Part shown: one piece after another, positions 8,700-10,254 of the stretch | Numbering within the stretch: position 1 is the stretch's first letter | Layout: each line of letters starts with the position of its first letter | Assembly (NCBI GenBank): GCA_963758915.1 | Contig: CAVWXH010000003.1 | Coordinates: 292,895-316,894 of the forward strand | DNA: 24,000 nucleotides | Reading direction: 5' to 3' | Source: an uncultured Methanomicrobiales archaeon | Lineage (GTDB): Archaea; Halobacteriota; Methanomicrobia; Methanomicrobiales; Methanospirillaceae | Position numbers and translations under genes: made by a program | The notes under the pieces: model-generated | What the model was told of the DNA's origin: nothing | Seen by the model: only the letters and a program-made list of their open reading frames with translations | Database searches by the model: none

Positions 8700-9893
8700 A
8701 TGCCAGGTAATGATCCGCTACTACCTGGAAAAGGTACCAGTTCCTGCGGTTGCGGGCCGGGCGCATGTTGTCCGGCCACAACCAACCCTGAAGTGGCTCC
8801 AGGTGCCCCCGACACGGATGAGAGTCCATCATGTGGATGTTCCTGCAATAGTAATGGAAATGAGTTAAAAAGCGAAATCCAGGATCAGGATAACCCGGAT
8901 GTATCCAGACCCCCGGTTATTACCCCTGTATCCAGTACGCTGACATCCAGGGATACCCGGGGACATGTTCTTGCGAGGCTCGGCCAGGACCGTTCAGGCC
9001 ACCGTGTGCCTCCAGGGCTCTACTCAGTCGGTTCTCCCGGCCCCGGGTCCCCCGTAATTGTGACGGCAAACTATACCCTTAGTTTTGACGCGGTACGGGC
9101 ATCGCTTGGCGACCTGGACACCTATATCCTCGTGCTGGATACGAAAGGGATCAATGTCTGGTGTGCTGCAGGGAAGGGAACGTTCGGAACAGAAGAACTG
9201 GTAACCCGGATCCACAAAACAGGCCTTTCCTCGGTTGTAAACCACCACCGCCTAATCCTCCCGCAACTCGGTGCCCCGGGTGTTGCCGCCCACGAGGTCC
9301 ACAAGGCAACCGGGTTCCATGTCGAATATGGCCCTGTTCGGGCAGCCGATCTCCCTGAGTTCCTCAGAGAGAGAGTTGCAACCCCTGAAATGCGGAAAGT
9401 GAAGTTTGACCTTCGGGACAGGATCGTCCTTATACCTGTTGAACTTCGGAGTGCTGCCCTTTATGCGATAATTGCAGCAATTGCCTTGTGGTTCGCCGGA
9501 GGATGGCTGCCTGCAATGGGTTTTCTCGCTGCAGTCCTTGCAGGGACGGTGGTTTTTCCGGTACTGCTCCCTTATCTTCCTACTGCAGACTTCAGCACAA
9601 AAGGGCTGGCCCTCGGAATTATCGTTGCAACCCCTTTTGCCGCACTGGCCTTCCTTACCAGCCAGGGAACACCCCTGTGGGTTGGTGTTACCGCAGTAAT
9701 TTCGATACTCTTTACACTACCAATAATAACGGCCTATCTTGCCCTGAATTTTACCGGTTGTACCCCCTACACTTCCAGGACAGGGGTAAAACGGGAAATT
9801 TACCTATATATACCATACATGGCAGGGTTTGCAGCCATAGGGGCTGCCTGTGCAATGTTGCTTGGATTAACAAAACTCCTTGAGATGTGGTGA
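8700..9893 (+). CDS. hgcA: Mercury-methylation corrinoid protein HgcA
   Basis: Exact cap-helix signature N(V/I)WCA(A/G)GK: GINVWCAAGKGTFGT (motif nt 9153-9176, Cys155 at 9162-9164). The C-terminal half carries about 5 hydrophobic helices (LYAIIAAIALWFAGGWL, FLAAVLAGTVVFPVLLPYL, LALGIIVATPFAALAFL, VGVTAVISILFTLPIITAYLAL, MAGFAAIGAACAMLLGL). hgcB follows immediately. Confidence 0.9.
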   Translation: MPGNDPLLPGKGTSSCGCGPGACCPATTNPEVAPGAPDTDESPSCGCSCNSNGNELKSEIQDQDNPDVSRPPVITPVSSTLTSRDTRGHVLARLGQDRSGHRVPPGLYSVGSPGPGSPVIVTANYTLSFDAVRASLGDLDTYILVLDTKGINVWCAAGKGTFGTEELVTRIHKTGLSSVVNHHRLILPQLGAPGVAAHEVHKATGFHVEYGPVRAADLPEFLRERVATPEMRKVKFDLRDRIVLIPVELRSAALYAIIAAIALWFAGGWLPAMGFLAAVLAGTVVFPVLLPYLPTADFSTKGLALGIIVATPFAALAFLTSQGTPLWVGVTAVISILFTLPIITAYLALNFTGCTPYTSRTGVKREIYLYIPYMAGFAAIGAACAMLLGLTKLLEMW

Positions 9894-9894
9894 C

Positions 9895-10254
9895 ATGATG
9901 ATGTTTAATTCGTATACCAACAACACGCTCCTGTTTTATCCGGATAAATGCATCGGGTGTGAACGGTGTTCCGAAGTCTGCCCACACAGCGTGTTTTCAG
10001 TCCACGGTGAGCGGGCATCCCTCCAGCGACCGGAACGCTGCATGGAATGCGGGGCCTGCCAGAGAAACTGCCCGACAGGTGCAATCACCGTTGAGAGCGG
10101 GGTCGGTTGCGCCTATGCCATGATCTATGCAGCCCTTACCGGGAGAAAAGAGGTCACCTGCGGAGATGATGGGTGTTGTGGGGGTACCGGAGAGCGGGAA
10201 GGTAATTGTAACTGCCTGGATTCCCCGGGGCCCGGGACTGGAACAGAGAAATAA
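9895..10254 (+). CDS. hgcB: Mercury-methylation 2x[4Fe-4S] ferredoxin HgcB
   Basis: Two CX2CX2CX3CP motifs: CIGCERCSEVCP (9949-9984) and CMECGACQRNCP (10039-10074). There is an additional conserved-position Cys (GVGCAYA) and a vicinal pair DDGCCGG (10174-10179). The track ORF begins at TTG 9880. ATG 9895, 1 nt after the hgcA TGA, is the more likely start. Confidence 0.88.
   Translation: MMMFNSYTNNTLLFYPDKCIGCERCSEVCPHSVFSVHGERASLQRPERCMECGACQRNCPTGAITVESGVGCAYAMIYAALTGRKEVTCGDDGCCGGTGEREGNCNCLDSPGPGTGTEK

Follow-up and report, generated by a model that had tools for sequence, protein, structure and literature searches.

The closest described counterparts of the locus analyzed here, an hgcC-hgcA-hgcB gene unit within a 24,000-nucleotide stretch of DNA (contig CAVWXH010000003.1; hereafter the window), are the mercury-methylation genes hgcA and hgcB of Pseudodesulfovibrio mercurii (Desulfovibrio desulfuricans) ND132 and Geobacter sulfurreducens PCA, which Parks et al. 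are said to have described in 2013. Mutagenesis in ND132 demonstrated that Cys93 and the membrane domain of HgcA and Cys73 of HgcB are essential, and that at least one of the HgcB residues Cys94 and Cys95 is needed for full activity, the double mutation leading to a 95% loss of activity (PMC7305189). In the purified ND132 complex, S-adenosylmethionine methylates Co(I), and a Co-S bond was detected by X-ray absorption spectroscopy (PMC11588087). Eight of nine methanogens possessing hgcAB methylated mercury in culture, the exception having a fused pair (PMC5893877). The unit in the window occupies positions 8332-10308 of the plus strand and, unlike those of ND132 and PCA, belongs to an archaeon, an uncultured Methanoregulaceae-like member of the Methanomicrobiales. 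As a whole, it very likely represents an archaeal hgcC-hgcA-hgcB operon for an HgcAB mercury methylase, with HgcC most likely its controller. A preliminary description of the same DNA had treated hgcAB as established knowledge, which is correct, and had counted the system as two genes, which does not apply to the three-gene unit found here.

The hgcA gene (8700-9893, ATG start) encodes the corrinoid membrane protein of the mercury-methylation complex (397 amino acids), and hgcB (9895-10254) encodes a ferredoxin of the 2x[4Fe-4S] type (119 amino acids). A profile hidden Markov model (HMM) search in NCBIfam, suggested as a check in the preliminary description, returned HgcA and HgcB proper as the best matches. 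The open reading frame (ORF) of HgcA scored 427 bits against the HgcA equivalog NF040863 (cutoff 275, E = 4.6e-128, residues 75-387 covered) and that of HgcB 118.4 bits against the HgcB equivalog NF040864 (cutoff 99, E = 8.8e-35), with the models for HgcAB-like fusions and for a corrinoid iron-sulfur protein (CFeSP)/ACDS gamma subunit far below their own cutoffs. Because these E-values come from curated equivalog models and both scores lie above the trusted cutoffs, the identity of the two proteins is far beyond chance, and we are nearly certain that 8700-9893 encodes a true HgcA and 9895-10254 a true HgcB. Family membership, the sequence hallmarks and the gene order are directly established.

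Similarly to HgcA of ND132 and PCA, the protein combines a Cys-bearing N-terminus, a CFeSP-like corrinoid domain with the NVWCAAGK signature and five transmembrane helices, in that order. The corrinoid-binding domain (8919-9404, residues 74-235) is delimited by the PF03599 match, by CFeSP matches in PDB and by AlphaFold2. The cap-helix signature NVWCAAGK is located at nucleotides 9153-9176 (residues 152-159), exactly as first described, and includes Cys155 (9162-9164), the predicted cobalt ligand and the counterpart of ND132 Cys93; a small slip concerned the longer 15-residue string GINVWCAAGKGTFGT, which spans 9147-9191. Six cap-helix residues (N152, V153, W154, C155, A157, and G158) are invariant among 105 homologues, and all 41 columns invariant across this set are retained in HgcA of the window. 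The PDB sequence search detected only the C-terminal corrinoid domain of the CFeSP large subunit (2h9a, 4c1n, and 4djd; E about 1e-13), aligned with residues 102-225, and the position opposite Cys155 in this alignment is not a cysteine.

The membrane domain (9432-9878, residues 245-393) consists of five helices detected both by hydropathy and by AlphaFold2, in agreement with the earlier reading of about five hydrophobic helices behind the signature and with the membrane-domain check proposed there. Kyte-Doolittle profiles (19-residue window) have five peaks with values of 1.8-2.3 at residues 252-270, 272-290, 302-320, 326-344, and 376-394, and never exceed 0.88 in residues 1-240. In a shuffle control, 89% of the shuffled sequences also passed the threshold, the composition itself being hydrophobic. 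This control is thus uninformative; what supports the membrane domain is where the peaks lie, how many there are, and the helices modeled by AlphaFold2. The AlphaFold2 model, built on the 105 homologues (predicted local distance difference test, pLDDT, 81; predicted TM-score, pTM, 0.71), has a disordered segment 1-68, an alpha/beta domain 74-235, and long helices at 245-267, 269-292, 298-320, 326-352, and 360-393. A Foldseek comparison of this model with PDB ranked 9a0b_A, a published integrative model of HgcAB, first (E = 1.9e-18, 40% identity) and CFeSP chains next.

The first ATG of hgcB (9895) is separated from the hgcA stop codon TGA (9891-9893) by the single base 9894, the one-nucleotide spacing that had been noted before; alternative starts are ATG 9898, ATG 9901, and TTG 9880. 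HgcB contains two CX2CX2CX3CP motifs, CIGCERCSEVCP at residues 19-30 (9949-9984) and CMECGACQRNCP at residues 49-60 (10039-10074), and, about 12 residues past the second motif, the mid-protein Cys72 within GVGCA (10108-10110), all of them recognized in the preliminary description. Pfam assigns only Fer4 domains to HgcB. Its vicinal CC is also present as Cys94-Cys95 (10174-10179), preceded by Cys89; however, this pair does not stand at the very end of the protein, since 24 more residues follow, including the CNC of Cys105 and Cys107 (10207-10215). This tail, which begins with TCGDDGCCGGTGEREGNCNC, is of a type with CC and then a second Cys cluster that is typical of HgcB from Methanomicrobiales. 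The two motifs, Cys72 (Cys73 in ND132), the equally numbered Cys94 and Cys95, and the location of hgcB immediately downstream of hgcA are common to this locus and those of ND132 and PCA, whereas the 24 residues past the CC pair and the extra CNC are differences from their HgcB. The residues matching the essential positions of the ND132 proteins are all present.

Metagenome assemblies from ENA and Logan already include a protein 100% identical to HgcA of the window; the contigs that encode it are 286-335 kb long and share the gene order of the window. The next relatives, of about 400 amino acids, range from 87% to 68% identity and originate from lake-sediment and other environmental metagenome-assembled genomes (MAGs). 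The closest, HgcA proteins of uncultured Methanomicrobiales/Methanoregulaceae, share 72-87% identity; the genome matches are MAGs of these groups (loci L001, 80%; L003, 77%; L002, 72%), and identity to the cultured genera Methanoregula, Methanolinea, Methanosphaerula, Methanosarcina, Methanolobus, and Methanospirillum is 49-57%. The protein belongs to the same family as HgcA of the mercury-methylating Methanospirillum hungatei, Methanosphaerula palustris, and Methanolobus tindarius (PMC5893877), and hgcB directly follows hgcA in nearly all of 80 fetched loci. The nearest relatives in Methanomicrobiales MAGs, together with an intact archaeal Nre gene (3462-4631), bear out the archaeal context proposed earlier. 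Genes of methanogenesis are absent from the 24-kb window, and the label 'methanogen' therefore rests on the taxonomy of the relatives. The hgcAB pair itself is an ordinary further member of a well-known family, which curated HMMs name automatically.

The N-terminal tail of HgcA (8700-8903, residues 1-68) is predicted to be disordered (pLDDT below 50), lies outside the HMM match, and carries seven cysteines in two clusters, CGCGPGACC (residues 16-24, 8745-8771) and CGCSC (residues 45-49, 8832-8846). Within the subclade of 68-89% identity the Cys positions are kept and the spacers drift. Among the 105 top homologues, 74 have CC or CxC ahead of the corrinoid domain, and 18 have at least seven cysteines. 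HgcA N-termini of cultured methanogens likewise contain CxC or CC, and their HgcB tails several Cys clusters; unlike these proteins, HgcA of the window belongs to a subclade of about 400 amino acids, known only from MAGs and metagenomes, in which a second cluster, CGCxxGxCCP, precedes the common CxC by about 25 residues.

Haft and Gwadz observed, in many bacterial HgcA proteins, an N-terminal extension that had been overlooked and contains a selenocysteine motif PCUGP, and noted that other extensions bear CC motifs 'packed' with extra cysteines (bioRxiv 10.1101/2022.07.06.499078). The tail in the window is the all-Cys form of this CU/CC extension: it has no in-frame UGA from ATG 8700 onward and contains CC (Cys23-Cys24) instead, in contrast to ND132 and PCA, for which a single PCUGP motif is proposed. 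The only in-frame UGA upstream of hgcA is the stop codon of hgcC. We considered, and rejected, that hgcC and hgcA are joined by read-through into a fusion or by a selenocysteine: they share a reading frame here, TGA plus one codon apart, but only about 4 of about 37 hgcC loci have this arrangement, below the chance expectation of one third. An extreme expansion of the polycysteine tail is observed in a Methanoregulaceae MAG (CAWIVM010000016.1; L052:9360-10000), where the HgcA N-terminus contains at least five tandem units of about 19 residues, SPCSCGSETKDT(P/T)DCCNSA.

The third gene, hgcC (8409-8696), encodes an AbrB/SpoVT-type 'HgcAB-associated protein' of 95 amino acids, which matches NF040962 ('HgcAB-associated protein HgcC') with 105 bits (cutoff 70), the AbrB-family model TIGR01439 with 37 bits (cutoff 28.3), and PF04014 with 26.9 bits (cutoff 24.7). 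Cys19 and Cys64 are invariant and Cys63 is present in at least 90% of 80 homologues. In 37 of the 80 loci fetched from genomes, hgcA has an hgcC gene upstream of it on its own strand; these loci are nearly all archaeal (Methanomicrobiales, Methanosarcinales, Methanocellales, and Methanomassiliicoccales), with one in Syntrophobacteria; in ND132 and PCA, by contrast, the upstream gene is arsR. Zhang et al. (2023) have noted a 'toxin-antitoxin-like' AbrB/PrlF-like gene upstream of archaeal hgcA and proposed, from synteny alone, that it encodes a regulator (PMC10349881). The gene in the window belongs to the same family, with the same position directly upstream of hgcA and the same archaeal bias; beyond that description, it has the conserved Cys19, Cys63, and Cys64 and is preceded by TCTGA repeats with a 9-bp period next to a TATA box. 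Our literature search found no paper using the name hgcC, HgcC being seen only in NCBIfam, and no description of these three cysteines or of TCTGA repeats beside the TATA box.

The repeat is situated in the 231-bp intergenic region that separates hgcC from a divergent gene, and comprises four units at 8332-8363, namely TTTGA (8332), TCTGA (8341), TCTGA (8350), and TCGGA (8359). Directly 3' of it, 33 nucleotides ahead of the hgcC ATG, lies the TATA-like box TTATATTA (8369-8376), read from the sequence as a putative promoter element. The repeat/TATA block is the best-conserved part of the intergenic region in L001, L002, and L003, and the same design, typically TTCTGATTTTTCTGATTTTTCTGAAAAnTATAAATA, occurs in other loci; the conservation of hgcC and of the repeat is an observed fact. 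From -200 to +30 of the hgcC start, a TC[AT]GA-N4-TC[AT]GA pair is present at 30 of the 37 hgcC loci, against a background of 0.64% of 230-nucleotide windows, or 2.5% of those with GC below 0.40. In the set of 41 loci for which no upstream hgcC was scored, the pair precedes hgcA solely in L061, where hgcC is in fact present, overlapping the hgcA start. The strict pair occurs once in the 24-kb window. In general, two to four units stand in register 93-151 nucleotides upstream of the Cys19 codon, and in 19 of the 30 loci a TATA-like box follows the last unit within 25 nucleotides. The repeat co-occurs with hgcC in Methanomicrobiales, Methanosarcinales, and Methanomassiliicoccales, and its strict form was also detected in the single Methanocellaceae locus. 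Since the element travels with hgcC and not with hgcA, we consider it a putative HgcC operator. The exact repeat TTCTGATTTTTCTGATTTTTCTGA was also tried as a regulon probe on metagenome contigs and abandoned, the pattern being too low in complexity: hgcC was present in only 3 (L148, L163, and L183) of the 120 loci found, and the rest were simple tandem or coding repeats.

The three genes are probably transcribed together, from the TATA-like box to an oligo-T stretch, because the gaps between them are 3 nucleotides (hgcC/hgcA) and 1 nucleotide (hgcA/hgcB), a Shine-Dalgarno-like GGAGG lies within the 3' end of hgcC, GGTGA stands ahead of the hgcB ATGs, and a T5 run at 10304-10308, a candidate archaeal terminator, is found 50 nucleotides past the hgcB stop codon. 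To judge from its sequence, GGAG at 8399-8402 is likely the ribosome-binding site of hgcC. Scans for bacterial promoters and terminators gave nothing above chance, as expected for an archaeon, and both the Rfam and the tRNA scan of the window were empty.

By analogy with the ND132 enzyme, on which the cofactor chemistry proposed here is modeled, the cytoplasmic CFeSP-like domain of HgcA would bind cobalamin, Cys155 providing the lower axial ligand as a Co-thiolate, and the five C-terminal helices would serve as the membrane anchor. HgcB, with its two [4Fe-4S] clusters, would reduce the cofactor to Co(I), which would then accept a methyl group, the donor being S-adenosylmethionine in the Pseudodesulfovibrio enzyme. 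The methyl group could pass to a Hg(II) thiolate complex presented by flexible Cys-rich tails, yielding methylmercury; the presenting thiols may be those of HgcB Cys72 and Cys94/Cys95 and probably also those of the seven-Cys tail of HgcA. A flexible HgcB tail has been proposed as the carrier that delivers Hg(II) to the methyl-corrinoid and removes CH3Hg+. HgcC most likely binds the TCTGA repeats beside the TATA box and so would control the operon. Production of methylmercury by this uncultured organism, as had been predicted from the gene pair, appears probable.

Two other identities of the hgcA product have to be weighed. The sole Pfam assignment of the ORF is the generic CdhD family (PF03599, 54 bits), the relatives P0020 and P0102 are called 'carbon monoxide dehydrogenase' in some databases, and methanogens do possess ACDS, all of which could point to a corrinoid protein of the ACDS or Wood-Ljungdahl type (CdhD/CdhE or AcsC/AcsD) instead of a mercury methylase. 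However, the ACDS gamma model NF003195 gives 78 bits against a cutoff of 306, with just its last 125 or so positions aligned, and the similarity to CFeSP is confined to residues 102-225. CFeSP, a component of the CODH/ACS pathway, shares with HgcA a homologous C-terminal Rossmann-like corrinoid-binding domain (about 20-24% identity), but its N-terminal [4Fe-4S] domain and TIM barrel are not found in HgcA, and it has neither the membrane domain (PMC7305189) nor the cap-helix Cys ligand, whereas HgcA of the window has both, as well as an adjoining HgcB-type ferredoxin. The sequence tests already refute such an identity, to which we would give almost no credence. Alternatively, the gene could encode an HgcAB-like paralogue without methylating activity, resembling the fused one of Methanococcoides methylutens, a methanogen that did not methylate mercury (PMC5893877), and the E-values of both ORFs against the fusion model NF043039 are indeed significant (1.1e-61 for HgcA and 2.2e-14 for HgcB). 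Nevertheless, their scores of 209 and 54 bits are under the cutoff of 285, that of HgcA being far under its 427 bits with NF040863, the canonical cap-helix motif is intact, and a stop codon plus one base lies between the two ORFs, so that a paralogue of this kind is very improbable.

Several points weigh against the interpretation of the locus as a methylase operon under HgcC control. The cap helix is not formed in the HgcA model, residues 156-159 having pLDDT below 50, an observation that is uninformative in a model lacking the cofactor. The strict repeat pair is missing from 7 of the 37 hgcC loci. A fold search with the monomer model of HgcC gave no significant match, the best being the AbrB-like C68 protein 3o27 (E = 0.43). 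For AbrB folds, which are intertwined dimers, the model of a monomer makes a poor query in such a search. Use of S-adenosylmethionine as the donor has been demonstrated for a bacterial enzyme only (PMC11588087), and the native function of HgcAB is openly debated (PMC10349881). This debate, along with the links of bacterial hgcAB to arsenic genes and an ArsR regulator (PMC10349881; PMC7438021), favors a further alternative, according to which hgcAB are genuine but methylate mercury as a side reaction, their native role being another methyl transfer or a metal(loid)/thiol-linked function, and hgcC encodes no regulator but either a leftover PrlF/MazE antitoxin or a metal chaperone that serves the complex through its cysteines. 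JGI and KEGG label HgcC 'antitoxin PrlF', and the vicinal CC present in HgcC, HgcA, and HgcB alike would suit a thiol relay. We rejected HgcC as a PrlF/MazE type II antitoxin: it is not part of a toxin-antitoxin pair, because its PrlF score is 18 bits against a cutoff of 125 and no toxin-like ORF is adjacent, its neighbors being hgcA, 3 nucleotides on, and a divergent secreted-protein gene. In addition, DNA binding by HgcC would agree with the repeat and TATA box that accompany its gene. We regard this alternative as improbable, and such an origin would leave the prediction of mercury methylation unchanged.

The assignment as an HgcAB methylase operon with HgcC as its controller can be carried one step further, to a model that we put forward as speculative and rather unlikely. 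Archaeal mercury methylation may be a regulated three-component system instead of a gene pair expressed constitutively, in which case HgcC would act as an AbrB-type repressor, with Cys19 and Cys63-Cys64, on the repeats abutting the TATA box, and would be released by binding of Hg(II) or a soft metal(loid) or by thiol oxidation, with the Cys tails of HgcA and HgcB relaying the same metal to the corrinoid. If this is true, archaeal methylators have a dedicated sensor with a logic like that of MerR or ArsR and an unrelated fold.

The divergent gene next to hgcC (7557-8177, minus strand) encodes a protein of 206 amino acids with an N-terminal signal-like or transmembrane segment and no match in Pfam or NCBIfam. 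It is kept beside hgcC in L001-L003 (80-91% identity) and is called as 256 amino acids in L081 and L082, two ENA contigs with an identical HgcA, its 3' end there differing from that in the window. On the other side, convergent with hgcB, a 148-amino-acid ORF with an N-terminal hydrophobic segment and no family match (10387-10833, minus strand) is also found in L003 (92%) and L002 (53%), but not in L001. A DUF2703 protein (685-1068, plus strand; PF10865, 29.5 bits), located 7.6 kb upstream of hgcC, is kept in L001 and L003. The genes for Nre, FGase (4740-5621), and a decarboxylase (12330-14636) are intact in the window, but L081, L082, or both of these otherwise near-identical contigs have them as two separate calls each; the split calls are probably assembly frameshift errors and not biology.

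This decarboxylase, a biodegradative arginine/lysine-type enzyme of 768 amino acids (920 bits with the AdiA model, under its cutoff of 1167), forms with a GadC/TyrP-like amino-acid antiporter of 482 amino acids a cassette of the acid-resistance type (10881-14636, minus strand). Its proteins are 95% and 98% identical to those in L003, whereas the flanking HgcA, FGase, and Nre are just 76-86% identical, and the cassette is absent from L001 within the 10 kb fetched on either side of hgcA, which suggests a recent horizontal transfer between related archaea. Further downstream, 18428-18802 encodes a prokaryotic RING-finger family 2 protein (PF14445, 82.8 bits), and 19517-20713 a secreted protein that combines two PKD domains with Thr-rich linkers; the linker region contains the sole tandem repeat (20076-20126) detected in the window. 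The last 3.3 kb or so (20714-24000) has no ORF longer than 111 amino acids on either strand; the end of a short ORF at 21163-21450 resembles, by eye, the start of a response-regulator receiver domain, and the region may represent a sensor gene that has degraded, or else frameshifted sequence.

The hgcAB pair marks an uncultured lineage of Methanomicrobiales as a likely producer of methylmercury, which is useful for environmental gene surveys and adds nothing new on the system itself. The polycysteine tail of this HgcA subclade offers a natural all-Cys counterpart for testing the metal-handling function proposed for the CU/CC extension. Together with this tail, hgcC with its three conserved cysteines and the repeat-TATA element make the control of archaeal hgcAB directly testable.

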